The notes under the pieces were generated by a model, which saw nothing but the letters and a program-made list of their open reading frames with translations, did no database searches and was not told the origin of the DNA. The position numbers and the translations under genes were made by a program. From Bacillota bacterium (GTDB taxonomy: Bacteria > Bacillota_I > Bacilli_A > RFN20 > CAG-826): a stretch of DNA of 64,000 nt. The stretch's first letter is position 1, and each line of letters begins with the position of its first letter. Below are positions 7,363 through 53,115 of this stretch, piece after piece. The stretch is taken from contig JAUNOH010000008.1 in the NCBI GenBank assembly GCA_030537155.1, forward strand, positions 4,557 through 68,556, read 5' to 3'.

Positions 7363-7436
7363 TGGAGCATCCGCCCGGATTTGAACCGAGGGTCAGGGAG
7401 TTGCAGTCCCTTGCCTTACCACTTGGCTACGGATGC
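7363..7436 (-). tRNA. tRNA-Cys(GCA)
   Basis: GCATCCGTAGCCAAGTGGTAAGGC...CTGCAAC...GGTTCAAATCC...TCCA, U73 discriminator. Confidence 0.96.
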
Positions 7437-7567
7437 GCGAGCAAGATTATAGCATCCCCCGACGGGGTGTAAAAGAAGCAAATCCCCGTCACAATGCGCG
7501 CGCAATATAAAGAAAGAAAAGCATCCCCGGAAAAGGAGGACCAGGGATGCTTTGGTGATGGTGAATA

Positions 7568-8282: not shown

Positions 8283-8408
8283 GGCGATGGAGGCCCCGTA
8301 GCATTTGACGTCGAAGGCGATCGAAAGCTCCTGGCCCAATATCTCCAGGCTCTCCTTCAGCCTTTTTTGGTCTTTTTCGTCATCCTCGACGATGGCTACC
8401 CTGATCAT
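8238..8408 (-). pseudogene. 5' fragment of a response regulator receiver domain (LytR/AlgR-like)
   Basis: MIRVAIVEDDEKDQKRLKESLE...FDVKCY...AFL, then similarity is lost before the phospho-acceptor Asp; stops after 56 aa. Confidence 0.72.
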
Positions 8409-8595
8409 AATCGTCCAAATATTATCGAATTGCTGTAATTATACCGCGAGAAAAATAAAAGAAACCCCTATGGGAGGAGCCATAGAAAGCGCCCCACCAC
8501 CGCGACTGCTGTGTCAGTGAGACAAAAATATGTAACCGCTTTCGCGTATTTCAATATAAAATTAATGAATATTCAAGGAGATAAAAAACCAAATC

Positions 8596-9354: not shown

Positions 9355-9442
9355 TCCCCCCACTCCAGCAAGGCCCCCTATGTGGGGGCTTTTCTTTTGC
9401 CCATATCGGTTATAAAGTTAGTCCGAGCTTACAGGAGTCTAT

Positions 9443-10243
9443 ATGGAATTAGGAACCGTCGAGGATACGTTGTTCGTCCCCCTTTTGGGGAGGATATACG
9501 CCAGCAAAAACCATTCAAACATCCTCTTCGACGCCAAAGCCCTTGAATTGGAGAGAAAAATCCCCGAACGCATCAGGGATAACGATAGGCAAAAGCAATA
9601 TACCCTCATCGCCTCAGCCAGCCGTTCGGCGAATATGGATCGATATATCGACGCTTTCCTATCGGAAAACCCCGAAGGCGTAATCGTCGAATTGGGCGTC
9701 GGCTTAGAAAGCACCTTCTACCGGAAAAAGAAGACGCCGAAAGCCTGGTATGGGGTGGATCTGGATAACGTCATCACCTACCGAAAAAACCTCCTCGGCG
9801 AAGAGGGGATAAAGCTGATTTCCGGGGACGCTTTTTCTGAGGCTTGGATCAAGGCGGTCAAAAACGAAAACCCCGCTTCCAAAATCCTCGTCACCTGCAG
9901 CGGCCTCTTCTACTACTTCAGTAACGAAAAGGTGTGTTCCTTACTAAAGAAATTGCATGAAGCCGGAGACTTTCAAATCGTCTTTGACGCGGTTAACAAA
10001 TCCGGCATGAAGATGATGAAGAAAGCCTATATGAAGCAAGTCGGGCACGCGGATGCCGAAGTGTTTTTCTACGTCGATAAAGGCAACTCGCTGGTAAAAG
10101 AAATAGGGAATGGGTGCGCTCTCCTAAGCGAAGAGCCGTTTTACAAGCATATTGACCGTAGAGGATTAAAAGCCGGAACCAAGTTCAACATGGTGGCCTC
10201 CGATATATTGAAGATGGTTAAAATGATCCATCTGAGCCTATAA
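9443..10243 (+). CDS. Class I SAM-dependent methyltransferase (LCM/TcmP-like)
   Basis: V.DTL..PL.GR, IVELGVGLES, W..VDL..V...R, GLFYYF. Confidence 0.85.
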   Translation: MELGTVEDTLFVPLLGRIYASKNHSNILFDAKALELERKIPERIRDNDRQKQYTLIASASRSANMDRYIDAFLSENPEGVIVELGVGLESTFYRKKKTPKAWYGVDLDNVITYRKNLLGEEGIKLISGDAFSEAWIKAVKNENPASKILVTCSGLFYYFSNEKVCSLLKKLHEAGDFQIVFDAVNKSGMKMMKKAYMKQVGHADAEVFFYVDKGNSLVKEIGNGCALLSEEPFYKHIDRRGLKAGTKFNMVASDILKMVKMIHLSL

Positions 10244-10308
10244 AGCTTCCGTTAATACACCCATGGGAACGCGCATCCAGGTAATCGAGCGGATGTCCAT
10301 CGCATCGA

Positions 10309-10731
10309 TTATGTGGCTTTATATTTTTCCTCGATTAGATCAAGCATTTCTCGGGGGATAACTATGTAATACTCCCTCGGGAAATGCCTGATGTTCCCAG
10401 TTACAAGATAGGCTTCACTTCGTTTTCGCTTGTCAGCCACCACATCATAGAATGGTTTGTCGCTTTTATCAGGCAACTCAACGCCGGAATCTGGGGCCTC
10501 AACAAGTTCTCCCAACTCGCGAATCGAAGATATGAATAGACCAACCAAATCTTCCGAGAAAGCAAACTTCGGTCTGGTGAGAACCTCTTTATATTCCTCA
10601 ATCATCCCATGACTAAATAAGGGTCTGAGAAATCCAAGCGCCACACAATCCAGCAGTCGCCTCGGCACCGATTGCGATTTAAGCAAAGCCGACACCAAAA
10701 CATTCGTATCAATCGCAGCATAAAAGCACAT
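10309..10731 (-). CDS. PIN-domain toxin
   Basis: IDTNVLVSAL, EY.EVL.RPKF, PD.SD.PF, LVTGN.RHFP. Confidence 0.9.
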   Translation of the reverse strand: MCFYAAIDTNVLVSALLKSQSVPRRLLDCVALGFLRPLFSHGMIEEYKEVLTRPKFAFSEDLVGLFISSIRELGELVEAPDSGVELPDKSDKPFYDVVADKRKRSEAYLVTGNIRHFPREYYIVIPREMLDLIEEKYKAT

Positions 10732-11024
10732 TAATTCCCACCCCTTTCTTTTCTGACGGCCTCTATTTCGGCCTGAATTTCTTCCTCCCCGAGCTTTGAG
10801 TTGCCATTATTCTCAGAAATGTCATTCATCTCATCAGCCGTATTAATGAGCGATTCCGATGCGGCACCTAGTTTCATGCTGAAAGGTATTCCCCGTTCCT
10901 GAACGCTCCTTCTTAGGAACATCCTCACGGCGGTCGAAAGGTCTAGGCCCAGTTCTTCAAATATCTCACTGGCTTGGGTTTTCAGTTCTTCATCTACCCT
11001 GATTTGTATTAATCCGTTTGGCAT
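10731..11024 (-). CDS. RelB/DinJ-family antitoxin
   Basis: IQIRVDEELK.QA..IFEELGLDLSTAVRMFL......GIPF. Confidence 0.9.
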   Translation of the reverse strand: MPNGLIQIRVDEELKTQASEIFEELGLDLSTAVRMFLRRSVQERGIPFSMKLGAASESLINTADEMNDISENNGNSKLGEEEIQAEIEAVRKERGGN

Positions 11025-11252
11025 ACCATCCCTCCTTTTGTAATTACATTATAATGCATTTGAAAGACAGAAGATGCTTTTTAAACCAATAGAAATTAAA
11101 GTCTGAATGGCGTTCAACAGGCAGGGACAGAAATCCATTCCTCTGCATCCAAATCAAAAAAAGAGGCCAAGATGGCCCAATTATCGTCCACGGCTTTCGG
11201 CCGGCAATTCCTATATCCATCTAATCGGATTCATCCGATTGATTCAGGTTTT

Positions 11253-11329
11253 TGGCGCGCCCGGAGGGACTCGAACCCGCAACCCCCAGATTCGTAGTCT
11301 GGTACTCTATCCAGTTGAGCTACGGGCGC
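11253..11329 (-). tRNA. tRNA-Arg(ACG), second copy
   Basis: 77 nt identical to 7284-7360. Confidence 0.97.
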
Positions 11330-11436
11330 GCATTTGCCTCGGTTTCCCACAGCCCGATAAATATATAGCGGACCCAAACAAAAATAAAGGGCCAATCAAA
11401 GAAAAAGCCCCGGTTTCCCGGGGCCATCTTTTTGGA

Positions 11437-12267
11437 TTAGCGGTAATCCTTCCTGGCGTCGGCGACTACGTTGTTGTAGTTGGAGGCGATGAAGGAGGCA
11501 ACCTTATCATCGAGCAGGGCGTTGGCTAGAACGTCGATCTTCGTCTTGTAGGTGGAGTCGTTGGCATACCTGGAGACGGATGCCGCGACCACGTTCGCGC
11601 GGAGGTCACGGACGTCGTTGCTCTCGACGGGGAGGTCGGGATCCGCGGAAATTTTGCCAGTTAAAGCGGTATTCGCGGGCAGGACGCCATAATCATAGTC
11701 GGGAAGCAAAGAGGCAAGGTTTTCCTCAGGAACGGCTCGGATATTGGATGGCAGAGTATCCAGAGTAACCGAGGAATCGATAATTCCGTTTTCGGCCAGC
11801 AGGGTCAAAGCGCGGGAGGCGTTGGAGGAATCGGCGCAGATGCAATAGGTCGCCGTGGTCTTCTTGCTCTCGAAATCGGCGGCCTCGGATTTGCCGGGGT
11901 AGATCCTCAAGGGCTCGAAGTGGACGGCAGCCACCGGGAAGACTTTGGTATAGACGTAGCTCTCGGAGAATTCGAGGGTGTCGTCATTGGCGTCGTATTG
12001 CTGGAGGTAGGGACGGTGCTGGAAGTAGTTGGCATCGTAATCGCCGTTATAGACACCATCGTTTTGGATGGTCCAGTCGAGGATGGTGACGTTGAGGGTA
12101 TAGCCCTGCTCCTTGACCAAATCGGCCACCACTCCGTTCAGAATCTCGGCATGGGGCGATTCGCTGGCGGCCACGGTGATGGTGGTCGCGGAGTCACCGC
12201 CGCAGGAGGCGAGTCCGCCGACGGCGAAGCAGAGGATGGGGAGGGCGAATAAGAGAGACTTTTTCAT
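11437..12267 (-). CDS. metQ: Methionine ABC transporter substrate-binding lipoprotein
   Basis: Lipobox LASC, PHAEIL, DANYFQH.PYL, VHFEPL.IY. Confidence 0.9.
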   Translation of the reverse strand: MKKSLLFALPILCFAVGGLASCGGDSATTITVAASESPHAEILNGVVADLVKEQGYTLNVTILDWTIQNDGVYNGDYDANYFQHRPYLQQYDANDDTLEFSESYVYTKVFPVAAVHFEPLRIYPGKSEAADFESKKTTATYCICADSSNASRALTLLAENGIIDSSVTLDTLPSNIRAVPEENLASLLPDYDYGVLPANTALTGKISADPDLPVESNDVRDLRANVVAASVSRYANDSTYKTKIDVLANALLDDKVASFIASNYNNVVADARKDYR

Positions 12268-37653: not shown

Positions 37654-39407
37654 AAACCTAATTCCTCCTTGCTTAGCTGGGATAAGGCGATTTCGCGGTA
37701 CTCGTCGCAGTTATCGAGTAACTCTCGATGGGCGCCGGTCCCCACGACCTGTCCGTCTTTGAGGCAGACGATGATGTCGGCGTCCATGATGGTGCCGACG
37801 CGCTGGGCGACGATCATCTTGGTGGCGTTCGGGTATTCGTTTTTCAGATTCTCACGCACCTGTTTGTCGGTTTTGAAGTCGAGGGCGGAGAAGGAATCGT
37901 CAAAGACGAGGAACTCGGGATCGTTGGCGATGGCCCTGGCGATGCAGAGCCTCTGCCTCTGGCCGCCGGAGACGTTGGTGCCGCCTTGGGCGATTTTGGC
38001 CTCATATTGGCCATCCATCTCCGAGATGAAGGGGGCCGCACAGGACACCTCGGCCGCCTTTTTCATCTTCTCATCGGACAACTCGGGGTTTCCGAATTTA
38101 ATGTTGGAGGCCACCGTTCCGGAGAAGAGGACGCCCCTTTGGGGGACGTAGCCGATTAGGGAGCGCAAAGTCGACTGCTTGAGGTTTTTGACGTTGACGC
38201 CATCGATCTTGACCTGACCGAAGGAAACGTCATATAACCTGGCCGAAAGCTGGACGAGGGTGCTCTTGCCACAGCCCGTCGTGCCGATGAAGGCGATGGT
38301 TTGCCCCTTATTGGCCTTGAAGGTGACGTTATGGATGACGGGGGCGTCGCCGTCGGGATAGCCGAAGGTGACGTTCTCGAATTCGACACTCCCGCGGTTC
38401 TCATCGAGGATCGGGGATTCCTCCTCGGGGTCTTTTATCTTCGACTCGCAGGACATGACCTCGTCGATACGCTTGGCCGAGACAAGGGCCCTGGGGGCGA
38501 AGACCAGCATGAATAGAATCATGACGAAGGCCATCATGATCTGGGTGGCCAGCATGACGAATTGGACGAGCGGTGAGTATTCGACGCTGCCACTATTGAC
38601 GAGGGAAGCCCCCAGCCAATAGATGCCCAAGGTGATGCCATTCATGGTGATCATCATGATCGGGTTCATCAAGTTCATGATGCGGCCGGTGAAGAGGCCG
38701 ACCTTCATAAGATCGGTGTTTGCCTTATCGAATTTCGCGTTTTGGTATTCCTCGGCGTTGTAGGCCCTGACGACCCTGATGCCGTTGAGGTTCTCACGGG
38801 TGATTCCGTTGACTCTATCGAGGAGTTTCTGCTGCTTCCCGAATTTGGGGATGACGAAGCTCATTGACACCGCCAAGGCGACGACCATAAAGGTGATGCC
38901 GATGGCCGGGACATAGGAGAGTTCCCAGCTGACATCGCCGATTTTGGCGATGCCCCAAACCAAGGTTATCGGGGCCGAGAAGACCATGGCCATCATGATG
39001 ACGGTCATGTTCTGGATCATCTGGACGTCGTTGGTGACGCGGGTGATGAGGGAGGAGGTCTGAAAACGCTTGATATCCTCCATCGAGAGGTTGGTGATCT
39101 TCTCGTTCAGTTTGCGGCGGATGCTGGATACCATGCCGGCCGAAACCAAGGCGGCCATGATGGCGACTCCAGCCTGGGCGAGCATTGAGAAGGCGGCCCA
39201 GGCCACCATCCACAAAGCGGCGCTCCAAATCTCGTCGGTCCCTCCCAGTCCATAATGGGCCAGATAAATGGCCTCAATCAATTCCTGCATGTCGTCGGTC
39301 AGGGTCATGTTGCACCAGACCTGAACGAAGGTCAGGCCCAGGATGAGCACAATCATGATCCCGTGGTACCAACGGATGTTTTTGAATATGAGTTTCAATA
39401 ACTTCAT
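37650..39407 (-). CDS. Heterodimeric ABC exporter subunit (degenerate site)
   Basis: G.TGCGKST, SGGQRQR, FDDSFSALD, VAQR. Confidence 0.93.
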   Translation of the reverse strand: MKLLKLIFKNIRWYHGIMIVLILGLTFVQVWCNMTLTDDMQELIEAIYLAHYGLGGTDEIWSAALWMVAWAAFSMLAQAGVAIMAALVSAGMVSSIRRKLNEKITNLSMEDIKRFQTSSLITRVTNDVQMIQNMTVIMMAMVFSAPITLVWGIAKIGDVSWELSYVPAIGITFMVVALAVSMSFVIPKFGKQQKLLDRVNGITRENLNGIRVVRAYNAEEYQNAKFDKANTDLMKVGLFTGRIMNLMNPIMMITMNGITLGIYWLGASLVNSGSVEYSPLVQFVMLATQIMMAFVMILFMLVFAPRALVSAKRIDEVMSCESKIKDPEEESPILDENRGSVEFENVTFGYPDGDAPVIHNVTFKANKGQTIAFIGTTGCGKSTLVQLSARLYDVSFGQVKIDGVNVKNLKQSTLRSLIGYVPQRGVLFSGTVASNIKFGNPELSDEKMKKAAEVSCAAPFISEMDGQYEAKIAQGGTNVSGGQRQRLCIARAIANDPEFLVFDDSFSALDFKTDKQVRENLKNEYPNATKMIVAQRVGTIMDADIIVCLKDGQVVGTGAHRELLDNCDEYREIALSQLSKEELGL

Positions 39408-39874
39408 ACGTTTTCCCCTGTTTTTTCTTCCTTTTCCTCTTCCTCGAAGTGCTTTTGGAGGATGAGGTTCAACTGATGGGTGTATTCGAGGTAGGCCTCA
39501 TAGCCTTCCTCCCCAATGGCCTCGACAAAGTCGCCGATGACGTCCTCGAAGCGCCTTTTCTTCCTCTCGATGACCTCGTGGCCGGCCTCGGTGATGCTAA
39601 CCAGGGTATGTCGCTTATCCTTCTCCCCGGCTTTGCGGGAGATGAGGCCCAGCTCCTCAAGCTTGGCCAAGGCGTTGGCGATCCTGGAATTGCCGACCCG
39701 CATCTTCTCGGCCAATTCGCCGGCCGTGACGGGCGAATCCGCCTCATCGAGGGTGCACAGGATCCCAAATTGTCCATAGGATAGTTTTCTGCGGTCGTTG
39801 CCATGGGCCTTTCTGCCCTCGCATTCGCAACAGTAAAACCTATCCGCGTATTCCTTCTTTTTTTCTCTGTCCAT
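39404..39874 (-). CDS. MarR-family regulator
   Basis: ELA.......I...L.KLE..GLI.R.....DKR...V.IT..G. Confidence 0.88.
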   Translation of the reverse strand: MDREKKKEYADRFYCCECEGRKAHGNDRRKLSYGQFGILCTLDEADSPVTAGELAEKMRVGNSRIANALAKLEELGLISRKAGEKDKRHTLVSITEAGHEVIERKKRRFEDVIGDFVEAIGEEGYEAYLEYTHQLNLILQKHFEEEEKEEKTGENV

Positions 39875-39885
39875 AATCGATAAAT

Positions 39886-39914
39886 TTCACAATGTGAACT
39901 AAATCACGGGTGAT
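39886..39914. promoter_or_regulatory. Probable MarR operator
   Basis: Palindromes TTCACaatGTGAA and ATCACggGTGAT just upstream of marR. Confidence 0.5.
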
Positions 39915-40052
39915 AATATGCAGGCAATCATTTCATATTGCAAGATATTTCTCTTGATTAGATGAAAAATAGATGAAAAAGCCGATTAAGACTAATGTTC
40001 TCGGCTTTAACCCAGGCTACCCAATCCCCGGATAGACGAGGATAATTTATCC

Positions 40053-40469
40053 ATGAGCAAATACTATCTGGCCTATGGGAGCAACCTCAATCTCGCCCAG
40101 ATGAGGAGGCGCTGCCCCAACGCCAAACAATTGGGTGGGACTATCCTTCATGGCTATGAGCTCTTCTTCAACCGCTACCTGGGGATAAGGGAGGCGGAGG
40201 GGAAAAGCCTGCCTCTCGGCGTTTGGGAGATAAATGAGGATGACGAGGCCAGACTCGATGTCTATGAGGGTTATCCCGAGCTATATTCGAAATCGGAGCT
40301 GGAAGTCGAATTCTCCGGGAAACGGATAATAGCTCTCATCTACTTCATGAACGAGGAAAAGCCTTTTGCCCCGCCCACCGCCTCTTACTTAGAAGGCTGC
40401 CGGCAGGGCTATCGCGACTTTGGATTCGAGCAGAAATACCTAGACGAGGCATTGGGGGTCAAATCATGA
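40053..40469 (+). CDS. Gamma-glutamylcyclotransferase family protein
   Basis: YLAYGSNLN..QM..RCP, LD.YEGYP..Y. Confidence 0.9.
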   Translation: MSKYYLAYGSNLNLAQMRRRCPNAKQLGGTILHGYELFFNRYLGIREAEGKSLPLGVWEINEDDEARLDVYEGYPELYSKSELEVEFSGKRIIALIYFMNEEKPFAPPTASYLEGCRQGYRDFGFEQKYLDEALGVKS

Positions 40470-40942
40470 ACGACATAATCATCTACTATTCCCGCACGGG
40501 AACCTGCAAAAAGCTGGCCGAGAAAATCCAAAAAGACCTTGATTGCCCCATCGAGTCGATCGAATTGAAGGAAGGCTACGGCAACTACCTTTCCTCATTG
40601 CTCCGTTACCAACGGGAGAAGAAAAAGGCCATCGAACCAGAGTTCTCAACCCCGTTTTTGGACCTTGAGTCATATGAGAGGGTCATTTTGGTGTATCCGA
40701 TATTCTTCGGCGACATCCCGGAATTCGTCACCTACTACCTCGAGAGGTGCGCTTATAAAGAAATCGAATTGATCCCGGTCTCAAACTCCACCGCCACCTC
40801 CAACGAAAAAAGCCTCGCCACCTTACGGGAGAGGCTCCCCAAAGCCAAGATATCCCACCCCTACTGGCAAAGCAAATTCCATAAAGGCGACTTCCCCTCC
40901 TGGATATGGCGGGTCAAAGCCGGCATGCCGGAAGAGGAATAA
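40466..40942 (+). CDS. Flavodoxin-like protein
   Basis: IIYYSRTG....LA..I, YE.V.L.YPI. Confidence 0.78.
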   Translation: MNDIIIYYSRTGTCKKLAEKIQKDLDCPIESIELKEGYGNYLSSLLRYQREKKKAIEPEFSTPFLDLESYERVILVYPIFFGDIPEFVTYYLERCAYKEIELIPVSNSTATSNEKSLATLRERLPKAKISHPYWQSKFHKGDFPSWIWRVKAGMPEEE

Positions 40943-40953
40943 GAGTCCGTATT

Positions 40954-41601
40954 TTAATCTTTAGAGATGACGTAATCGCAGAACCGCCCATAATCCTCGA
41001 ATTGCGGGACGTCGTATTTTGATAGTCTCTTCTTTGAGCAATGGCCACTGGTGAAGAAGGCGGGCTTCAGCCCGATGGCTTTGGCCACCTCATAATCGTG
41101 GATGGTGTCCCCGAGCATCAAAGTCTCCTCCGGCTTAATCCCGTGGCCGAGGAAATATTCTTTGCCATATTCGATCTTGCTTTTGGCCTCGATGTCCTTG
41201 GCCCCGATGATTCCATCGAAGAGGTCATAGATACCGAGCCTCTTCAGTTGGGATTCGAGGATGTCCTGTCTGGAGGCACTCAGGCAATATAGCCCGATGC
41301 CGGCGGCTTTCAGTTTTTCCGCGCATTCTCTAAAGCCCTCATATAGGGAGGACTCCGACGCTTCCCTTTCGAGGTATCTCTTCATGAATTCGGCGTTCAA
41401 TTCGTCGTAGCTGATGTCTTTGAAGTCGAAGCCGATGAGTAGGTAATAATCCCGAACGGGGAAGCCGAAGTGATCGAGGTAAAAATCCATGGGTATCCTC
41501 GGCCTACCGCTTTCCTCGAGCAATTCGTTTTCAAGCTCCAGGGTGAGATCGACGTCGTTCAGGATGGTTCCGTTGAAGTCGAAGCAGACGTTTTTGATCA
41601 T
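40954..41601 (-). CDS. HAD-family hydrolase
   Basis: FDFNGTIL.D, LSAS, GDT.HD. Confidence 0.9.
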   Translation of the reverse strand: MIKNVCFDFNGTILNDVDLTLELENELLEESGRPRIPMDFYLDHFGFPVRDYYLLIGFDFKDISYDELNAEFMKRYLEREASESSLYEGFRECAEKLKAAGIGLYCLSASRQDILESQLKRLGIYDLFDGIIGAKDIEAKSKIEYGKEYFLGHGIKPEETLMLGDTIHDYEVAKAIGLKPAFFTSGHCSKKRLSKYDVPQFEDYGRFCDYVISKD

Positions 41602-41722
41602 GGCAAAGATTATACAAAAGATTGGGGCATTGTCCTCATCGACTATCAGGCACAAGGCGTCTTGAAAAGTATCTAATTTCAAGCGGGAGGGATATACTGA
41701 TTTCCAAGGAGATATCGACAAT

Positions 41723-42157
41723 ATGAAAGACAATAACTGCGCCTACTGCATGAGGGAGGAAAAGCCGGAGCTATATCAGGGTTTCGGATACTATGTGATG
41801 GATCTTAAGGTCTCATCGCTATACGTATTCAGGGAACAGTCCCATCTTGGTAGATGCATCGTGGCCTATAAGGACCACGTCTCCGAGATCGTCGATATCA
41901 GCAAGGAGGAGAGGGCCCTCTTCCTCGAGGATGTGGCGAATGTCTCCAACGCCATCCACAAGGCCTTTAATCCCGGCAAGGTCAACTATGGCTTTTATGG
42001 CGATACGGGGAAGCACCTCCACTGCCACCTCTGCCCCAAATATAAGGATGGCGACGAATGGGGCGGCGTCTTCCTGATGAACCCCCACCTCAAGGATTTA
42101 AAAGACGAGGAGCTGAAGGGGATCGCCGATAAGCTGCTTGAATACATCGAGAAATAA
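41723..42157 (+). CDS. HIT-family protein
   Basis: C.YC, K.NY...GD, HLHCHL.P. Confidence 0.9.
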   Translation: MKDNNCAYCMREEKPELYQGFGYYVMDLKVSSLYVFREQSHLGRCIVAYKDHVSEIVDISKEERALFLEDVANVSNAIHKAFNPGKVNYGFYGDTGKHLHCHLCPKYKDGDEWGGVFLMNPHLKDLKDEELKGIADKLLEYIEK

Positions 42158-42300
42158 ACGACTTTGAAAAGCTCCGAGGAAATCGGGGCTTTTGTTTTGC
42201 CTTGCGAAATCGGCCCTTCCCCTCCGATTAAAAGCGTTCATTTACCTTATCGGAAAATAGTCGCAATCAAGGTTAGTTTGCCTAGCAAAAACCCCTAAAA

Positions 42301-42330
42301 TTGACACTATTTTTGTTCAAATGATAGAAT
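42301..42330 (+). promoter_or_regulatory. Near-consensus sigma-A promoter of the TIR-MTase/luxS/GNAT unit
   Basis: TTGACA-N18-TAGAAT with extended TG. Confidence 0.8.
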
Positions 42331-42356
42331 CGTGTTCATATAGGGGGCGACGAATA

Positions 42357-43670
42357 ATGCAAACCTACGACTTTTTCGTCAGTTATTCTTCCAAGGACAA
42401 GGAGATCATCGACGGCCTCGTCCACCAACTTGAATCCTCGGGGGCCAAATGCTGGTATGCCCCAAGGGACGTTCAGGGGAGATACGCCAAGGCCATCGTC
42501 GACGCCATCGGGCAGGCGAAGATTTTCCTATTGTGCCTATCCGAAAACGCCGCGGCCTCCGACCACGTCCTCAACGAGATTGAGATCGCCTACAACAAGA
42601 AGAAATCCCCCGACGTCTCGCCTTTGATCATCGAGCCGCTTTGCATCGAGCCGATCGACCTCGACGCCCCGCAGTTCGACGAGATCATGTATTACATCAG
42701 GCGCATCAACTTCATCTCCCCCACCAACCTCTCCTCGCCCAAGGCCATCGCCCAGGAGGTCATCGAGAAAAACAAAGACTACCTGAAGATCGAGGCCAGC
42801 AAACATCACGAGCGGGCCCAAAGCCTCTATTTCCCCAGCGAGAGGGAGACGAAGAGGCTGAAGATCCAAGGCAACCTATTGAAGAAATTCGATAACGAGA
42901 CCTATCAGAAGCTGTTCTCCAAATTCGAGCAGATGGACGTCTTGGACGTCGGCTCGGGCAATGGCGACATGCTGATGGATAGGCTGAAGGAATCCAAGAA
43001 GCCTTTTAGGCTTTTGGGTGTGGAAAGAGACGCTCAGAAGGTCGAGCAGGCCAACGCCAACTATGGGGATGAGGGGAAAGTCCACTTCGCCGTGATGGAC
43101 GTCAACGACCCCGAATTCAGTGAATCGGTGGCCGACGAGATGGATAAGATGGGGATCGAGGGCTTCGACGTCATCCACATCTCGATGCTCCTGCTCCACA
43201 TGGAGTCGTTCTGCTCTCTGCTCAGGAAATGCCGGAGGCTATTGAAGAGCGACGGCTACATCTTCATAAAGGATATCGACGATGGCTTGAATTACGCCTT
43301 CCCTGACGAGAAGAACGCCTTTGAGAGGATCTATCAGATCTGCGACCGCAACGAGACCAGCGGCAATCGGAGGAACGGCCGGGAGATATACACCAACCTC
43401 TATCGGGCCGGCTTAAAGAAAATCAGCCTGGAGAAAAGCGGCTTCACCACCATCGGGCTCTCATATGAGGAGAAGGAGGCCTTCTGGGGGATGTATTTCC
43501 AATTCATCCTCGGCGACATCAAATGGATGTATGAGAAATACCCCAACAACATCGATATCAAAGACGACTGTGAGTGGTATAGCAAAAACTACGAGGACCT
43601 CTTTGAGCAGTTTATGAACGATGATTTCGTCTTCAGCCTGGGTTTCCAGATTTATCTGGCCCAGAAATGA
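42357..43670 (+). CDS. TIR domain fused to a class I SAM-dependent methyltransferase
   Basis: TIR: YDFFVSYSSKD, WYAPRD, S.HV.NEI..A. MTase: VLDVGSGNG, FDVIH...LLLH, LLK.DGYI.I.D. Confidence 0.85.
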   Translation: MQTYDFFVSYSSKDKEIIDGLVHQLESSGAKCWYAPRDVQGRYAKAIVDAIGQAKIFLLCLSENAAASDHVLNEIEIAYNKKKSPDVSPLIIEPLCIEPIDLDAPQFDEIMYYIRRINFISPTNLSSPKAIAQEVIEKNKDYLKIEASKHHERAQSLYFPSERETKRLKIQGNLLKKFDNETYQKLFSKFEQMDVLDVGSGNGDMLMDRLKESKKPFRLLGVERDAQKVEQANANYGDEGKVHFAVMDVNDPEFSESVADEMDKMGIEGFDVIHISMLLLHMESFCSLLRKCRRLLKSDGYIFIKDIDDGLNYAFPDEKNAFERIYQICDRNETSGNRRNGREIYTNLYRAGLKKISLEKSGFTTIGLSYEEKEAFWGMYFQFILGDIKWMYEKYPNNIDIKDDCEWYSKNYEDLFEQFMNDDFVFSLGFQIYLAQK

Positions 43671-43692
43671 TAAAGCTAGGAAGGAGAATTAC

Positions 43693-44160
43693 ATGAAAAG
43701 AATCGCCAGCTTCACCATCAACCACCTCAACCTCTTCCCGGGGCTATACGTCTCCAGGCGCGATAAAAACGGGGACAAGGTAGTCACGACCTTCGACCTC
43801 CGCTTCACCGCGCCGAATAAGGAGCCGGTCGTCGATATGCCGGCCATCCATTCCATCGAGCATCTGGCCGCCACCTTTTTGAGAAACGGCCCCCGGCAGG
43901 AGGAGATAATCTACTTCGGCCCGATGGGCTGCCGCACCGGATGCTATCTGGTCATGTGGGGCGATTTATCAAGCGAGGATGTCTATGACTTAGTCATCTC
44001 GATGTGCGACTTCATCATCTCCTTTGAGGGCGAGATCCCCGGGGCCAAGCCCGAGCAATGCGGGAATTACCGAGAGCAGAATCTCGACATGGCCAAATAC
44101 TACGTCGCCAAATACAAGAAGGAATTGGTCGAGCATCGACGCTTCGTCTATCCGGAATAA
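43693..44160 (+). CDS. luxS: S-ribosylhomocysteine lyase
   Basis: SF.I.H, FDLRF..PN, HSIEH, GPMGCRTG, CGNY. Confidence 0.96.
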   Translation: MKRIASFTINHLNLFPGLYVSRRDKNGDKVVTTFDLRFTAPNKEPVVDMPAIHSIEHLAATFLRNGPRQEEIIYFGPMGCRTGCYLVMWGDLSSEDVYDLVISMCDFIISFEGEIPGAKPEQCGNYREQNLDMAKYYVAKYKKELVEHRRFVYPE

Positions 44161-44191
44161 GCGGCGAATAGACAAAAAAGGGGGGCGAACC

Positions 44192-44704
44192 ATGAATTTC
44201 AAAAAGGCATCGATCGACGATTTCGAGTTGATTTACAAGATGATGGTGGACGCCAGGAAGAAATCCTGGGACGAGGGGGTTTTCCAATGGAACGAGAACT
44301 ACCCCACCGCGACCATGATCAAAGGCGATTTGGAGAAAGGCTATACCTACTTGGTATACGACGAGGGGAAGATCGTGGCCTTCTTCACGACCAATTCGAT
44401 ATGCGAGGACGACGTCCACGACCACATCAAATGGCTGAATGAAGGCGATAACTGGGTCATCTTGCACCGCCTATGCGTGGATACCGGAGCCCAGGGGAAT
44501 AAAATCGGGCAGAGGATATTGGCCCTATTCGAGAAGGAAAAAATCGAGGAGGGCTTCGACAGCATCAGGATCGACGTCTTCTCCACCAACGCGGCCGCCA
44601 TCCACATCTATGAGAAATTCGGCTATATCCTGCTTGGCAACGCCACCTGCGACCGCGGGATGTTCTACATATACGAAAAAATGCTGCCAAAGCAAAAACA
44701 CTGA
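44192..44704 (+). CDS. GNAT acetyltransferase
   Basis: QW...YP, HRLCV....QG..IG, D.F..N..A...YEK.GY. Confidence 0.9.
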   Translation: MNFKKASIDDFELIYKMMVDARKKSWDEGVFQWNENYPTATMIKGDLEKGYTYLVYDEGKIVAFFTTNSICEDDVHDHIKWLNEGDNWVILHRLCVDTGAQGNKIGQRILALFEKEKIEEGFDSIRIDVFSTNAAAIHIYEKFGYILLGNATCDRGMFYIYEKMLPKQKH

Positions 44705-44710
44705 CGCCTT

Positions 44711-45211
44711 TTAACGCTTTAGCGCGCCTTCTAATAAGAGTAATTCCCTCTTTTTCTCTATCCCTCCGGCATAGCCAGTCAGGCTGCCGTCTTTTCCGAT
44801 TACCCGATGGCAGGGAACGATGATGGAAATGGGGTTACGCCCCACCGCCCCTCCGACGGCCTGGGCCGACATGTGGTCGAGGCCTTTTCTGGCGGCGAGG
44901 ATCTTTCCTATCTCGCCATACGTCATCGTGCTCCCGTAGGGGATGGTCTTCAATATCCCCCACACCTCCTCCTGGAAGGGGCTGCCTTTCAAATGGATGG
45001 GCAAAGAGAAATTTGGCTCCTTCCCGGAAAAATAGATATCGAGCCAACGTTTGGCTTCAGCCAAAACGGGGATTTCCTTTTCCTCACGCTTTCCTTCCAG
45101 GCGATAGGCAAAATGCTTTTGCCCGATAAACCAGGCCCCGGTCAAGCCGGCCTCATCCGCGGATAAGAGCATCGTCCCAAGTGGCGACTCATAATGGGAT
45201 ATGTAATTCAT
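44711..45211 (-). CDS. ogt: Methylated-DNA-protein-cysteine methyltransferase
   Basis: FQ..VW..L..IPYG...TYG, NP....PCHRV. Confidence 0.94.
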   Translation of the reverse strand: MNYISHYESPLGTMLLSADEAGLTGAWFIGQKHFAYRLEGKREEKEIPVLAEAKRWLDIYFSGKEPNFSLPIHLKGSPFQEEVWGILKTIPYGSTMTYGEIGKILAARKGLDHMSAQAVGGAVGRNPISIIVPCHRVIGKDGSLTGYAGGIEKKRELLLLEGALKR

Positions 45212-45372
45212 CTCCCTATTTTCCGCCAAAGCGAACAAAGCTCCAACCCCGCACAAAAAAGCAGCTTTGATTCATAACGCCGCTTCGTCACGGATGTCGG
45301 ATGCAATCTAAACGGTAAAGGCCAAAAAGAAAATACCCCATCCTTACGGAATCAGGGGTATTTTTGCCTTCA

Positions 45373-46320
45373 TCAGTTGTATTTGTAGAAGCCTTCGCCG
45401 GAGCTCTTTCCGAGTTTGCCCTCGGCGATGTATTTGCTGAGCATCTTATCCATGCCCTTGAAGTTATAGGGGGCGAGGAACGAGGGGATCTTCACATACA
45501 TCTTAACGATATTATGCGCGGTCGTGAGCCCGACCGTGTCGAGGATCTGGAAGGGTCCCTTGGGGGCGCCGGTTCCAAGAACCCAGGCCTTATCGATGCT
45601 TTCCGGATCGGAGATGCCGTTGACATATAGATCCATACCAGCGAAGAGGAAAGGTACCAGCATCGAGTTGAGGAGATAGCCGCTCTTTTCCTTCTTGACG
45701 GGGAGGGCAATCATCCTGATGTCGTTGGCGAACTTCATCACGACGTCGAAGTTCTTCATGTCAGTGAGCTTCTGGGCCATGACCTCGGCGGTGTTGTTCT
45801 TCCAGATCGAGTTGGCGAAGTGGAGGGATAAATACTTATCGGGCCTGCCGGTGACTTTGGCGAACTTGCTGGGTAGCAAAGTCGAGGAATTGGTGACGAC
45901 GATGGTCTTCTCGGGGAGCAGGGGAGCCATTTTCTTATAGAATTCGATCTTCTGATTGGCGTCCTCGGCCATCGACTCGATGACGATGTCGGCGTCCTTG
46001 ACGGCCTTGGCGAGGTCGAGTTCCAGCTTGATGGATGAACGGGCCTCCTTTGACTTCTTCAGGCACTCCTCGGCGTTGAAGCCCTCATAATCGGCGATGC
46101 CCCTGCACCAGTTGGCTGGGGTCTTGCCTTCGTCGGTGTCCATCAGCTTAATGGCCTCCTCATAGCTTTTGACGAGCCCATCGAGTTTGGGGGTGCACCT
46201 TTTGATGCTGCCCTCGCTCCTTAGCCAGATGGTGACGGAGAAACCGCAATAGGCGGCCTGATAGGCGATTTGGCTTCCTAAGACGCCGCCACCGGCCACC
46301 ACTACATTCTTGATTTCCAT
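45373..46320 (-). CDS. 3-hydroxyacyl-CoA dehydrogenase family protein
   Basis: GGGVLGSQIA, IES..E, TNSST, LHFAN, GPF...D.VGL, G.LG...GEGFY. Confidence 0.92.
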   Translation of the reverse strand: MEIKNVVVAGGGVLGSQIAYQAAYCGFSVTIWLRSEGSIKRCTPKLDGLVKSYEEAIKLMDTDEGKTPANWCRGIADYEGFNAEECLKKSKEARSSIKLELDLAKAVKDADIVIESMAEDANQKIEFYKKMAPLLPEKTIVVTNSSTLLPSKFAKVTGRPDKYLSLHFANSIWKNNTAEVMAQKLTDMKNFDVVMKFANDIRMIALPVKKEKSGYLLNSMLVPFLFAGMDLYVNGISDPESIDKAWVLGTGAPKGPFQILDTVGLTTAHNIVKMYVKIPSFLAPYNFKGMDKMLSKYIAEGKLGKSSGEGFYKYN

Positions 46321-46452
46321 TAATATCTCCTTTAATTAATTAACCTATTATAACGGCCGAAAAACGGCGCCCGACATCGCGGAAAGACGCCTGTGACATT
46401 AGCGATTTATTGAGTAACAGCCGAGATTTTGCTTACTAATCAAGCCAAATGT

Positions 46453-47238
46453 TTAGCCCAGGAAGGCCTTAACAATTTCTTTGGCCCAGCCAAAGATAAA
46501 CGGCACGTTTTCATCCAATAGGGTTTTGACGTTGGAGGCTTCGCCCGAATTTAAGGAGCCGACTTTTTCAAATAGGCTCCCGCTGGCGGCGCTCCTCCCG
46601 ATGGCGATCAAGGCGCTGGATTCATCCCCATAGGCGAAATAATAGCCGATGGCTTTGGCGCCTATCGAAAAACTTCCGATGGAGAGGGCGCCGATGGATA
46701 AGATTCCGAGGGAAATCGCGCCGATGGCAATGATACCCACCGCTATCGAGCCAAGCGATAATAGCAATCCCAGGGAAATGACACCCAAAGCCAGCAAGCC
46801 TATCGAAAATAACCCGATCGAGAAAAGCCCGAGGGAGAATAAGCCAATCGAAATAAAGCCTCTGGAAGCCAGGCCGATGGCGATGATGCCTTTGGCCACT
46901 CTCCCATAGCCGATGTTGATGTGATATAAGGGCAATCCGAATATGGTTTTGGCGCTCTTCTTCTCGTAGTAAAAGCTTTGGAGGTTGATGGTGAGGGAAT
47001 TAGCTTGGGTTTTAGATGGTTCGTATGGCTTAGGGTCCTCGACCTCATCCTTCATCAGATAGTCGAGCGAACAATCATAGAGCTTGGCGAGCCTGATGAG
47101 CTTATCGGTCTCCGGATAGGCCAGATCGCTCTCCCATTTGCTGATCGATTGCCTCGAGACTTCCAAGATGGTGGCTAGCTGCTCTTGGGTGTAGTTATTC
47201 TCTTTTCTTAACTTCGCCAGTTTTTCGCCGATGCTCAT
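46453..47238 (-). CDS. XRE HTH regulator with Gly-repeat membrane domain
   Basis: TQEQLA..L.VSRQSISKWE...YP; repeated (I/L)G.. hydrophobic pentamers. Confidence 0.85.
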   Translation of the reverse strand: MSIGEKLAKLRKENNYTQEQLATILEVSRQSISKWESDLAYPETDKLIRLAKLYDCSLDYLMKDEVEDPKPYEPSKTQANSLTINLQSFYYEKKSAKTIFGLPLYHINIGYGRVAKGIIAIGLASRGFISIGLFSLGLFSIGLFSIGLLALGVISLGLLLSLGSIAVGIIAIGAISLGILSIGALSIGSFSIGAKAIGYYFAYGDESSALIAIGRSAASGSLFEKVGSLNSGEASNVKTLLDENVPFIFGWAKEIVKAFLG

Positions 47239-47457
47239 GTGTTTTCCCTCTTTCGCCTTTATCTTATTTCCGGGGCCCATGGGGAAACCACCAATTTACG
47301 ATTTCTTTTTGTAAAGTTCAGGTTGCGTTTAGGGCAAAAGCGGGCCTCAAATATGCAATTACGTTAGAAACGAAGACATTTAATGCCTATTCCTTTTATG
47401 GAAGCCTTTCGACCCAATATACTTAAGTCAGCATCGAAAGAAAGGAAGGCAATGCAT

Positions 47458-47634
47458 ATGTGCAAATGGGAATACAAAAGCGTCCTCGTGACCGCCATGA
47501 CGGCCAAAAAGCTATCGTCCGTTTTAGAGGAAAAATCCAACGAACTCGGCAAGGAAGGCTATGAATTAGCCTGCTTTGACGGGGTTGAGGCCGGAACCAT
47601 CATCGCCGTCTTCAAAAAGCCGATCGAAGAATAG
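47458..47634 (+). CDS. DUF4177-like small protein
   Basis: WEYK....N.LG.EG.EL...FKKP; SD AAGGAAGG. Confidence 0.7.
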   Translation: MCKWEYKSVLVTAMTAKKLSSVLEEKSNELGKEGYELACFDGVEAGTIIAVFKKPIEE

Positions 47635-47646
47635 CTTTGATTTTTG

Positions 47647-48231
47647 CTAGGAAGGCCTAAATTCCATCGCGTAAAGGAAGCAACCGGATTTCGTTGCTTT
47701 TTTTGCCGCCAGCTTCATGCCGCAGGCCTCGTACTTTTTCATCTTCGTTTCGGTATCCGTATCGAGCACACAGGGGATTTTGCCGGACTCGGCTTCCGCA
47801 AAAGGCGTGGCCAAGATCTTTCTTAAATAACCTTTTCCCTGGTATTCCGGGAAAACAACCACCATGGAAACAAGGACATAATCCTTCTCTTTTTTATAGA
47901 TCTTTTCATAGAGGTTATCGGCGTTTTTCGCCAGTTTGATAAGACTTTTAAAGCGGATTTCCCTGAGCATCCTAAACACCATTCTTAGCAGAGGCTTAAG
48001 ACGCATTTTGTCTTTTTTATGCCAATATGCGAGCAAGCCTTCCATCCTCTCGCCGGTGGCATATAGAAGACCAGCCCGATAATAGCATTCGGTCATGATC
48101 TCTAAGGCTTTGACGGCGTCATCTTTTGGCAAGATCATCGCTATGCCGTCTCCTTCCGAGCAAAAAGCCTCCCCGACCCGTCGGCCAAGTTCCTTCAATC
48201 GCTCATCCGAAAGGCCTTCAAGCTTGATCAC
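47647..48231 (-). CDS. GNAT acetyltransferase
   Basis: V.V.PEYQGKG, L.TD......Y...G. Confidence 0.8.
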   Translation of the reverse strand: MIKLEGLSDERLKELGRRVGEAFCSEGDGIAMILPKDDAVKALEIMTECYYRAGLLYATGERMEGLLAYWHKKDKMRLKPLLRMVFRMLREIRFKSLIKLAKNADNLYEKIYKKEKDYVLVSMVVVFPEYQGKGYLRKILATPFAEAESGKIPCVLDTDTETKMKKYEACGMKLAAKKATKSGCFLYAMEFRPS

Positions 48232-52650: not shown

Positions 52651-53115
52651 TCAAATACGATTTTCCATAATGAGGCAAGGGTTATCCCCGCCCCACACCT
52701 CCGTGGTGGTTTTTACTGGTTCAAAGCCCATTGCCACATAGAATTTCCGTGTCTGTTCGTACGGTTCGTAATTGGCCTCCTCAGCCAGGGTTTTTACTTT
52801 GACATAATCACAGCCGTGATTTTTCAAATAAGTTTCGGCTTCTTGGAAAAGCAGTTTTCCAATTCCCTTACGGCGATGAGTTGGTTTAACGCCCATCACG
52901 ATTATCTCACCAGTATGTAAGTGATGAATTTCAAAAGAAATAAAGCCGATTACTTCAGCATTTTTACTAAATGCAAAGAAAGCCTGGTGTTTGCTTTCCT
53001 CGGCGTAGCGTTCCACTGCCCTAGGATCGGCAAACCACTCGGGAAGGGCTGACAAAATATGTTTGGTGATTAAGTATTTAAGATTTTCGTCCCTTATTTC
53101 TTCAATCATAGTCAT
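52651..53115 (-). CDS. GNAT acetyltransferase
   Basis: LPEWF, MGV....RRKGIG, VKTL, Y..TR.FY..MGF. Confidence 0.9.
   Translation of the reverse strand: MTMIEEIRDENLKYLITKHILSALPEWFADPRAVERYAEESKHQAFFAFSKNAEVIGFISFEIHHLHTGEIIVMGVKPTHRRKGIGKLLFQEAETYLKNHGCDYVKVKTLAEEANYEPYEQTRKFYVAMGFEPVKTTTEVWGGDNPCLIMENRI

Follow-up and report, generated by a model that had tools for sequence, protein, structure and literature searches.

Within the window, the whole 64,000-nucleotide stretch of a Bacillota genome that was analyzed (GenBank assembly GCA_030537155.1), three genes lie closely spaced on the forward strand, encoding a TIR domain fused to a methyltransferase, the S-ribosylhomocysteine lyase LuxS, and a GNAT acetyltransferase (Table 1). 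The gap between the fusion gene and luxS measures 22 nt and that between luxS and the GNAT gene 31 nt; both carry a Shine-Dalgarno sequence (AAGGAG and AAGGGGGG, respectively), and no terminator-like site was found between the three genes. The hairpin upstream closes a HIT-family gene and separates the operon from it, while at the other end the GNAT stop codon lies 6 nt from that of the convergent ogt gene. Every feature described in the first-pass annotation was confirmed in its place, including this spacing and a promoter called strong, which is indeed near consensus with a TG before its second hexamer; promoter-like sites across the region show no excess over shuffled sequences (3 found, 3.1 expected). 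We take the Met codon at 42357, where homologs begin, as the start of the fusion; an ATG that would lengthen it, at 42321, precedes the position where transcription is expected to begin.

Table 1. Features of the TIR-methyltransferase operon and its upstream boundary (window coordinates)
Feature	Position	Strand	Basis
Intrinsic terminator-like hairpin with T-run	42167..42193	+	11-pair stem, 5 GC pairs, T-rich tail
Sigma-70-type promoter, TTGACA, 18-nt spacer, TG-extended TAGAAT	42301..42330	+	11/12 hexamer matches
TIR-methyltransferase fusion gene, 437 aa	42357..43670	+	
Predicted TIR domain, residues 1-128, catalytic-position Glu E74 in VLNEIE	42357..42740	+	TIR_2 match, Cat1 alignment
Predicted class I SAM-dependent methyltransferase domain, residues ~159-437	42831..43670	+	Pfam, Foldseek, PDB profile
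luxS (S-ribosylhomocysteine lyase), 155 aa, own Shine-Dalgarno AAGGAG	43693..44160	+	
GNAT acetyltransferase gene, 170 aa, own Shine-Dalgarno	44192..44704	+	

The proposed co-transcription also holds up, in that the genes form a tight operon and contigs from RNA libraries cross both junctions (42921-44708 in run X2; 42864-44186 and 44157-44918 in run X1), which does not prove a single transcript; such libraries may also contain DNA. The X2 contigs leave 42169-42335 and 44841-45341 without cover, as would fit the predicted operon ends; X1 covers everything, and the gaps do not count as evidence. Runs X3 and X4 yielded only short, partly unlike pieces.

The encoded proteins

Both halves of the fusion that had been called from its open reading frame are recovered by Pfam (TIR_2 over residues 6-99 with 63.8 bits, the cut-off being 28, and E 2.7e-17; Methyltransf_23/31/12/25/11 over residues 184-357 with E values between 7e-14 and 8e-9). 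An AlphaFold2 model of the chain has a mean pLDDT of 93.8, with a beta-alpha, TIR-like N-domain at 88-97. Among solved structures, the CRISPR-associated TIR protein Cat1 matches the TIR part best (E 9e-12), followed by TIR-STING (E 2.5e-8), and Glu74, which the first-pass annotation had rightly seen retained (HVLNEIE), aligns with the Glu in the WDELE stretch of Cat1. Characterized TIRs cleave NAD+ via a catalytic glutamate, and judging from the alignment this is the residue kept here.

The methyltransferase domain carries the SAM motif I reported earlier as intact (LDVGSGNG), an acidic residue at the end of beta2 (GVERD), a post-beta4 His281, and the pairs D308 D309 and R338 R342. At least 500 PDB structures matched the fold in Foldseek at E<=0.001 and were, among the matches listed, class I methyltransferases; the best was 3mgg (E 1e-12; TM 0.74-0.75 by target; 2e-16 in a profile search against the PDB), followed by phosphoethanolamine N-methyltransferases (PfPMT, ~2e-10). 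The closest characterized relatives are of small-molecule or peptide type (PEAMT, JHAMT, BamL, LahSB), and we predict a class I SAM-dependent enzyme of the small-molecule type. PADLOC matched only the TIR part (ThsB 6.5e-9, SAVED-TIR 3.6e-5), no model in PADLOC-DB 2.0 covers the whole fusion or the gene set, and the literature searched contained no characterized system of such architecture, in agreement with what had been stated before.

LuxS matches PF02664 (E 7e-56, 188.6 bits) and the NCBIfam equivalog NF002604 (201.2 bits against a cut-off of 158), with no match in PADLOC; its HSIEH motif (H-x-x-E-H) and the downstream Cys (EQCGNY) are presumably the metal ligands. The host genome encodes a Pfs/MtnN nucleosidase (TIGR01704, 88.8 bits against 73.8) and gave no match to SahH. 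The GNAT matches Acetyltransf_1 (E 4e-12, 46.9 bits against 20.7) and, weakly, PDC-M11A in PADLOC (1.9e-4). The acetyl-CoA motif Q-x-x-G-x-G, found in seven of eight aligned orthologs, reads QGNKIG in the window copy, with Lys at the first Gly.

Spread, conservation, and partners of the family

The fusion is one of hundreds of such proteins. One search returned 252 homologs, and 121 full-length copies occur in 127 loci from gut Bacillota, Actinomycetota, Bacteroidota, and Mycoplasmatota and from one archaeon, with Collinsella aerofaciens, Olsenella, and Acholeplasma strains as cultured carriers. Phyla are interleaved in the family tree, 6 of 399 genomes of a phylum sample have the family (4 of these 6 with two copies), none of 24 genomes of the host genus holds a full-length ortholog, and an IS3 transposase adjoins one copy (L115). 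The family is accessory and moves horizontally among gut anaerobes. At the insertion site there is no tRNA gene and no convincing pair of flanking direct repeats, the flanks are not collinear in relatives, and a DNA search of 58 genus genomes placed none on the cassette among the 150 matches listed (210 others lie beyond these). Carriage by phages or plasmids was considered and rejected, since phages (1 record), plasmids (1 record), and IMG/VR (12 loci) gave only TIR-only matches.

The catalytic-position E74 is conserved in 118 of the 121 copies, G199 of motif I in 114, D197 in 118, and His281 in 115; an Asp or Glu occupies position 223 in 114, while D308, D309, R338, and R342 are found in all 121. 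This Asp-Asp/Arg-Arg acceptor pocket persists even in seven copies that have lost motif I, most of which still have E74, suggesting that ligand binding matters more than methyl transfer. That conservation is strictest at the acceptor pocket and not at the SAM site also argues against SAM as the sole thing sensed.

Long homologs of the methyltransferase domain (n = 83) carry a TIR domain in 67 cases and a cytidine/dCMP-type deaminase in one (E 9.6e-15), and another seven have a helical N-terminus that is HEPN-like by a conserved R-x4-H motif and sub-threshold HEPN-family matches only and found no sequence match in the PDB. Two more are methyltransferase-GNAT fusions (P0228/P0230), with a GNAT of no detectable kinship to those of the operons, and stand-alone methyltransferase forms of ~285-310 aa exist as well. 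By these domain assignments the N-terminal domain is exchanged on a constant methyltransferase fold, and such swapping, together with the SAM-dead paralogs, would favor a sensor role of that fold. TIR, HEPN-like, and deaminase N-termini are typical effector domains of conflict systems.

The family-wide partner is a GNAT, contrary to its earlier treatment as incidental. It accompanies the fusion in 28 of 87 lineages (21/66 where each flank extends for at least 1.1 kb), and a same-strand GNAT gene lies within 600 nt of the fusion in 23 of 83 genome loci; as background, the 1.33-Mb host genome has 13 PF00583 matches. Partner GNATs fall into at least eight unrelated sequence clusters, lie upstream or downstream, and often overlap the fusion gene, and in the SAM-dead copies of the paralog clade a GNAT is directly upstream in 5/5.

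The luxS adjacency, for which a chance insertion had been considered, turned out to be real and recurrent but limited to one clade. It is no chance insertion: luxS accompanies the fusion in 7 of 87 lineages, and the trio recurs in the window, L013 = L118, L115 = L116, L117, L119, L120 (41% identity), and partly L131. In some copies luxS is decaying, as a pseudogene in L015 and by an internal deletion in L116. It adjoins only SAM-competent copies (7/7) and none of the seven motif-I-degenerate ones. No luxS was found in 24 genomes of the host genus, and no Pfs homolog in the 127 family loci.

A third partner is a membrane protein with RCK/TrkA_N-like and RyR domains, encoded within 3 kb of the fusion in 15 of 87 lineages (9/48 of those with flanks of at least 3 kb). 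At a second locus of the host (G000 contig C17), a GNAT, a TIR-methyltransferase paralog, and an RCK-RyR gene follow one another in this order with 8-nt spacing; elsewhere (L134), a RyR-like protein is found with four TIR genes. Of 23 RyR sequences, 21 retain the motif E-H-x-R-W. A 2026 preprint describes RyR domains that bind or cleave the cADPR signals produced by TIRs (PMC13232231).

Other TIR genes, DUF4062 proteins, Cas9/Cas1, PDC-S01, PDC-M42A, and a retron-type PRTase occur beside some copies, and candidate defense neighbors are present in only about one-quarter of the loci (two genes either side surveyed). Many copies, however, sit amid housekeeping genes, such as EF-G/EF-Tu (L013), grpE-dnaK(-dnaJ) (L044, L035), and gatA/gatB (L042), which is not the typical defense-island picture, and 27 of 48 long-flank lineages have none of the three partners (GNAT, RCK-RyR, luxS). 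No cyclase or Cas10 gene was seen near the fusion in the loci surveyed. Linkage to NAD genes was dismissed as too rare to count (nadD and nadE in L120 only; PnuC-like transporters in three loci). The upstream HIT gene was rejected as a Thoeris ThsC-like partner (PADLOC ThsC2 5.8e-7) because it has its own terminator, homologs in the genus occur without the cassette, and the other family loci hold no HIT homolog.

A tentative mechanism and its alternatives

Probably, this widespread, unstudied, and horizontally moving family acts in defense or conflict. As to how, we tentatively prefer to see the fusion as a one-chain, ligand-gated sensor-effector of a conflict (anti-phage-type) kind, although our doubts outweigh our confidence. 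From the observed domains, motifs, conservation, operon structure, and gene linkages, we infer a ligand, its gating, and all catalytic steps as follows. The methyltransferase fold would bind a small ligand with phosphate and amine groups in the invariant Asp-Asp/Arg-Arg pocket and, as long as SAM is available, would methylate and thereby clear it, with acetylation by the GNAT as a second route of clearance. LuxS and the host Pfs nucleosidase may remove the SAH-derived by-product, sustaining methylation and returning homocysteine. When the ligand exceeds clearance or SAM drops, the occupied methyltransferase domain would activate the TIR domain, which would then consume NAD+ and yield ADP-ribose-type products; at other loci, including the second one of the host, these are probably read by the membrane RCK-RyR protein. 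In its favor, the ligand-gated TIR effectors Cat1 and TIR-STING are the closest to the TIR part. Against it, the full catalytic set and the effector-less methyltransferase-GNAT fusions fit a plain metabolic enzyme equally well.

Such an enzyme would belong to a tailoring module outside immunity, in which the methyltransferase and acetyltransferase modify an amine-bearing gut metabolite or xenobiotic, the TIR domain is a nucleosidase or oligomerization module, and LuxS completes SAH recycling in a host lineage otherwise without it. The complete catalytic motifs, the kinship to small-molecule and peptide methyltransferases, the stand-alone and GNAT-fused forms, the housekeeping genes beside many copies, and the failure to find the family on phages or plasmids are all consistent with this, as is the lack of luxS from the genus genomes searched, which would make its gain useful in itself. 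Yet a mere scaffold would not need the nearly invariant TIR glutamate, the N-termini are of the conflict-effector type, the family is patchy, multi-copy, and mobile, and it is linked to RyR-domain proteins and other TIR genes. We regard a purely metabolic function as unlikely. Conceivably, the fusion is instead Thoeris-like, its TIR domain making an ADP-ribose-derived messenger that the methyltransferase and GNAT methylate or acetylate and that the RyR membrane protein receives or executes, with LuxS and Pfs sustaining methylation. The RCK-RyR linkage, the cADPR binding of RyR domains described in the preprint cited above, and the four TIR genes of L134 would suit this, the two invariant Arg and two invariant Asp could accommodate a diphosphate-ribose ligand, and two copies, as found in most carrier genomes of the phylum sample, resemble multi-ThsB Thoeris systems; moreover, the signals of Thoeris types X and XI are still unknown (10.64898/2025.12.03.692087). 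Nevertheless, at least 39 of the 48 lineages with long flanks have no RyR partner, there is no signal to decorate where the fold carries a HEPN-like or deaminase N-terminus, SAM-dead paralogs retain the TIR glutamate, and the methyltransferase-GNAT fusions lack a TIR altogether. Decoration of a TIR-made signal seems doubtful to us.

The first-pass annotation had proposed two mechanisms, a methylated nucleotide signal tied to AI-2 and a guard against SAM depletion, in which the methyltransferase fold senses SAM or SAH and the loss of SAM, for example to a phage SAM lyase, frees the TIR NADase. The SAM-binding motif is intact in 114 of 121 copies, luxS is a SAM-cycle gene linked in one clade, and the single chain has sensor-effector architecture. 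A pure SAM sensor, however, would need neither the catalytic His nor an acceptor pocket, and it is this pocket, outside the SAM site, that is invariant and that outlasts motif I in copies mostly retaining E74; with the GNAT also unexplained, we consider a SAM guard quite improbable. Purine N-glycosidases occur among TIR-related folds, and the TIR domain might be an SAH nucleosidase that forms, with the methyltransferase and LuxS, a self-contained line from SAM to homocysteine. The order of fusion gene and luxS, conserved in one clade, would be in keeping with this. The host already has Pfs/MtnN, though, none of the 127 loci has a Pfs gene, 80 of the 87 lineages have no luxS, and the nearest relatives of the TIR part are TIRs that cleave NAD+, which makes such a line highly implausible.

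Returning to the ligand-gated sensor-effector, we can envisage, as an extension that is speculative and rather unlikely as a whole, a new class of TIR immunity built on small-molecule chemistry at a primary amine. A nucleotide-like "danger" metabolite, held below threshold by methylation, acetylation, and, in the variant, deamination, would be sensed by the methyltransferase fold. The TIR output would open a RyR-domain membrane channel and may itself be methylated or acetylated, giving a "private" form of ADP-ribose signal that escapes recognition by phage sponges and RyR-type hydrolases. Through LuxS, the system would be coupled to the methyl cycle of the cell and perhaps to the release of AI-2.

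Significance and comparison with known systems

TIR enzymes have central roles in bacterial, plant, and animal immunity, and we know of none that is wired to a methyltransferase. Likewise, to our knowledge, no other methyl-cycle or AI-2 gene lies inside a TIR operon, so that a conserved luxS link would be the first. Since the family is common in gut anaerobes, cultured strains among them, its function is directly testable. A sensor role of the methyltransferase fold would mean a new way for metabolite state to gate NAD+ depletion; should the fold instead decorate the TIR product, modified ADP-ribose messengers would join the known signal set and host RyR domains would gain a physiological ligand. 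Even if the genes prove to encode a pair of tailoring enzymes, a large uncharacterized methyltransferase clade, with PDB 3MGG among its members, would gain a function.

Among known systems, Cat1 (CARF-TIR, type III CRISPR), TIR-SAVED, and TIR-STING (CBASS) likewise combine a TIR with catalytic Glu and a ligand-binding domain in one polypeptide. Here, in contrast, the fusion partner is a class I methyltransferase with intact motifs instead of CARF, SAVED, or STING, and its operon is shared with a GNAT and LuxS. Thoeris (ThsB TIR plus signal-activated effector, types I-XI) is similar in its TIR with catalytic Glu, in a ThsB match by PADLOC, in having several TIR paralogs per genome, and in the linkage of a subset to a ligand-binding membrane protein, in our case one with a RyR domain. 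It differs in that the window holds no ThsA-type effector (SIR2-SLOG, Macro-TM, and the like), most family loci are without a candidate receptor, and the window operon adds luxS and the GNAT only. In its main text, the systematic survey of Thoeris nowhere mentions methyltransferase, RyR, or acetyltransferase.

The methyltransferase fold is common to the family, 3MGG from Methanosarcina mazei, and PEAMT/PMT. The family and 3mgg further share the motifs E-x-x-R-L, D-x-G...P, and G-x-x-G-R-Q-I-Y, but 3MGG has no TIR and is functionally uncharacterized, and PEAMTs do not have DIDDG...YPD and SG-x-R-x-x-GR as a set. The H-x-x-W motif of phage RyDEP, which provides the ligand contacts H75 and W78, is also kept in the RyR partners of the family; these, in contrast to the small phage enzymes, are host membrane proteins with RCK/TrkA_N-like domains, encoded at loci other than the window. 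Metis (MisA/MisB) offers an analogy of working only, its proteins being unrelated: there, NAD+ loss is reported to be set off by a small modified nucleotide, whose basal level a second enzyme removes so as to prevent self-harm (10.1101/2025.11.05.686725). Finally, the operon resembles the Pfs-LuxS branch of the activated methyl cycle in that its luxS passes the equivalog cut-off and the host has Pfs, with the difference that luxS is here an accessory gene traveling in a TIR-methyltransferase operon.

The operon and its surroundings

The first-pass annotation described a strong promoter followed by a TIR-methyltransferase fusion gene, luxS, and a GNAT gene, and Pfam and NCBIfam matches together with sequence scans agree on every element, including the gaps of 22 and 31 nt. 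Residues 6-99 of the fusion match TIR_2 (Pfam, E 2.7e-17), and residues 184-357 match five class I methyltransferase families of Pfam. Each gap holds a Shine-Dalgarno sequence, and no terminator-like site was found in either, as had been proposed; the GNAT gene and the convergent ogt gene have their stops 6 nt apart. Sampled words of the stretch were found at 96% and 88% in two metatranscriptome libraries from one study, and both gene junctions are spanned by RNA-library contigs (42921-44708 in contig set X2; 42864-44186 and 44157-44918 in X1), which, coming from libraries that may contain DNA, fall short of proving a single transcript. In a public database this very locus is annotated as a 379-aa product (P0001), which covers 87% of the ORF and has no TIR Pfam match; its start has evidently been placed too far downstream, which conceals the fusion there.

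The HIT-family gene upstream was considered as a ThsC2-type partner and rejected. Since it ends in a terminator of its own and is unlinked to the family elsewhere, it is probably a coincidental neighbor. The cassette sits in a row of small accessory-type genes (39404-48231) comprising MarR-like (by eye), GGACT, flavodoxin, HAD, HIT, the cassette, ogt, and 3-hydroxyacyl-CoA dehydrogenase. An HTH_3 regulator (46453-47280, minus strand) is fused to glycine-rich repeats, GLTT and pentapeptide-like, which are probably membrane embedded, and a probable second GNAT lies at 52723-53025 (PF00583 match, minus strand). Among the 150 matches listed, the only strong DNA matches in genus relatives were ABC-transporter genes at 36.0-39.2 kb.

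Features of the cassette locus in the window and of the paralogous locus (L099, contig C17) in the same genome
Feature	Location	Strand	Remarks
HIT-family gene	window 41723-42157	+	PADLOC ThsC2 match, 5.8e-7
Terminator-like hairpin	window 42167-42193		3' end of HIT gene
Promoter	window 42301-42330		TTGACA-18-TG-n-TAGAAT; sequence scan
TIR-methyltransferase fusion ORF	window 42357-43670		437 aa; ATG at 42357
luxS	window 43693-44160		above Pfam and NCBIfam equivalog cut-offs
GNAT	window 44192-44704		above Acetyltransf_1 cut-off
Paralogous TIR-methyltransferase	L099 1889-3235	-	448 aa; ~29-31% identical
GNAT upstream of paralogue	L099 3232-3822		same operon
RCK-RyR protein downstream of paralogue	L099 3-1880		4 TM; runs past contig end

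An accessory family built on one methyltransferase fold

A word-indexed search returned 252 homologues of the fusion; the 120 of these that were listed are mostly 426 to 470 aa long with TIR and methyltransferase Pfam families both present. When 1.84 billion cluster representatives were searched with the methyltransferase part alone, 603 proteins reached E<=0.001, and pattern scans located 79 loci in species-representative genomes and 45 in metagenomes. The named hosts comprise gut or rumen Clostridia, Bacilli-type MAGs, Christensenellaceae, Collinsella, Olsenella, Atopobiaceae, Bacteroidaceae, Rikenellaceae, Acholeplasma/Anaeroplasma, and one Methanomethylophilaceae archaeon. These host groups interleave in the tree, and hence the gene moves horizontally; no full-length copy was found among phages, plasmids, and viral contigs. 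The fusion gene is accessory: in a phylum sample of 399 genomes, six carry the family, and a search of 24 genus genomes yielded no full-length orthologue. The window's own genome (1.33 Mb, 37 contigs, 90.7% complete) contains exactly two TIR_2 genes, both of this family. In the second, the paralogue on contig C17, motif I is degenerate (LIVSTMYA), while E74 and the Asp-Asp/Arg-Arg pocket are retained.

The TIR catalytic-position Glu and the SAM motif noted in the first pass proved to be family-wide features. Among 121 full-length copies, E74 is found in 118 (the neighboring E76 is variable), motif-I G199 in 114, and His281, after beta4, in 115; D308, D309, R338, and R342 occur in all 121. An AlphaFold2 model of the fusion has a mean pLDDT of 93.8. 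Among the matches listed in the structure search, its methyltransferase half is nearest to 3MGG, a protein of unknown function, followed by phosphoethanolamine N-methyltransferases (PEAMT), LahSB, BC_2162, and JHAMT. A profile search agrees with this and identifies Cat1, a CRISPR-associated TIR, as the best relative of the TIR part. His281 presumably sits where PEAMT has its catalytic His.

The N terminus is exchangeable. A TIR domain is carried by 67 of the 83 long methyltransferase-domain homologues; one (P0124) has a cytidine/dCMP-deaminase-type domain that is RibD-like by eye, and two (P0228 and P0230) are methyltransferase-GNAT fusions that have no N-terminal domain and end in a GNAT with a Cys-rich tail. 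The remaining 13 have N termini without a Pfam match at E<=0.001; seven of them (P0141, P0138, P0239, P0261, P0181, P0209, and P0242) have in common a helical domain that shows a conserved R-x4-H motif and subthreshold HEPN-family matches. A PDB sequence search with this domain gave no match, and we therefore consider it only tentatively HEPN-like. Stand-alone methyltransferase forms of ~285 to 310 aa also exist.

Recurring partners and neighborhoods

Neighborhoods are highly variable except for three recurring partners: luxS, GNATs, and an RCK-RyR membrane protein. The first-pass suggestion that luxS might be a chance insertion did not hold, since the trio recurs in the window, L013=L118, L115=L116, L117, L119, and L120, and partially in L131, down to 41% identity to the window (L120), with gaps of 7 to 25 nt. 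At L015 (944-1374) luxS is a frameshifted pseudogene between intact neighbors; at L116 (2475-2855) it has an internal deletion of ~28 codons next to a fusion gene identical to that of L115. L011 has no luxS at the locus, and in L082 it lies two genes off on the opposite strand. No luxS was found in the 24 genus genomes, and of 16 further genomes from the order only one had it, so the cassette brought it in. It is found only next to copies with an intact motif I (7/7).

At 23 of 83 genome loci a GNAT gene lies on the same strand no more than 600 nt away. Counted by lineage at 90% identity, a GNAT is present in 28 of 87, and in 21 of the 66 whose two flanks each reach 1.1 kb or more. The background in the window's genome is 13 PF00583 matches per about 1.3 Mb. 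Partner GNATs fall into at least eight unrelated sequence clusters, lie upstream or downstream, and often overlap the fusion gene by 1 to 4 nt; the tree requires at least seven gains or losses of this linkage. The membrane partner (620 to 1000 aa; 15/87 lineages, 9/48 where flanks reach 3 kb or more) has a fold like that of RCK/TrkA_N-RyR proteins (Atlas TM 0.67-0.76). Its C-terminal RyR domain is detected by Pfam in three members (E 4.7e-11, 1.8e-5, and 2e-4), and the motif E-H-x-R-W is found in 21 of 23 sequences. On contig C17 the order is GNAT, paralogue, and RCK-RyR gene, with 8-nt spacing, the latter encoding the sole such protein in that genome. A GNAT lies directly upstream in all five SAM-dead copies of the paralogue's clade. 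Operons at L082 (3342-5739) and L084 combine a phosphoribosyltransferase, which matches PADLOC retron PRTase_III-A (6.6e-8), with a GNAT and the fusion.

Within two genes of some family copies we find other TIR proteins (L074, L077, L079, Collinsella, and L134), DUF4062 proteins (L076, L079, and L120), Cas9/Cas1 (L023), PDC-S01 ATPases (L028 and L059), PDC-M42A (L028), a retron-type PRTase model match (L082), HerA-like ATPases (L081 and L087), and transposases (L035, L040, L085, and L115). By reading of neighbor tables, such conflict-type neighbors occur at roughly a quarter of genome loci, a rough and partial count because the PADLOC scan covered the first half of the neighbor set. Many other copies lie among housekeeping genes. 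The L134 island (984-11695) encodes, besides the fusion (546-aa ORF), a 1009-aa RyR-like protein and three more TIR proteins (Sel1-TIR, TIR-FGE-sulfatase, and TIR). The most divergent luxS-type operon, at L120, is flanked (1-2270 and 5291-8698) by divergent genes with NAD_synthase plus CN_hydrolase and cytidylyltransferase-like domains, which we read as nadE and nadD, as well as by a gene in convergent orientation for a 1135-aa DUF4062 protein, so that this neighborhood is NAD centered.

A possible sensor-effector and its alternatives

Tentatively, and with less than even confidence, we favor a ligand-gated sensor-effector, because the methyltransferase fold stays constant and its acceptor pocket is invariant, the N terminus swaps among domains of the kinds usual in conflict-system effectors, the nearest relatives of the TIR are ligand-gated TIR effectors, and the gene is accessory, multicopy, and mobile. 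Methylation by the fused domain and acetylation by the GNAT would buffer the ligand, LuxS would support methyl turnover, and the TIR would consume NAD+; in some genomes, RyR-domain membrane proteins might read the output downstream. All these biochemical steps are inferred. A 2026 preprint (PMC13232231) shows binding or cleavage of 2'/3'cADPR by RyR-domain proteins of phages via H75, W78, H100, and D117.

The earlier interpretation is supported in part: the fusion is real, its motifs are conserved, and full-text literature searches turned up no account of a TIR-methyltransferase fusion. The main text of a systematic Thoeris survey (10.64898/2025.12.03.692087) does not mention methyltransferase, RyR, or acetyltransferase. 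A Thoeris-like system with a decorated signal is an unlikely alternative. We are equally doubtful of a plain tailoring-enzyme module. A strict SAM guard seems improbable; among the seven copies that lack G199, one clade (L005_0, which is the paralogue in the window's genome, L027_1, and L153-L155) still carries E74 and the Asp-Asp/Arg-Arg residues. That the TIR acts as an SAH nucleosidase is hardly to be expected; the window's host has Pfs/MtnN. No SahH match was found in its genome.

The finding lends itself to direct testing, since orthologues occur in cultured strains such as Collinsella aerofaciens, Olsenella sp. An270, and Acholeplasma granularum ATCC 19168 (loci L065, L087, and L055). 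Metis, as described in a preprint, offers a precedent in which a metabolite triggers NAD+ loss and a second enzyme clears the ligand.
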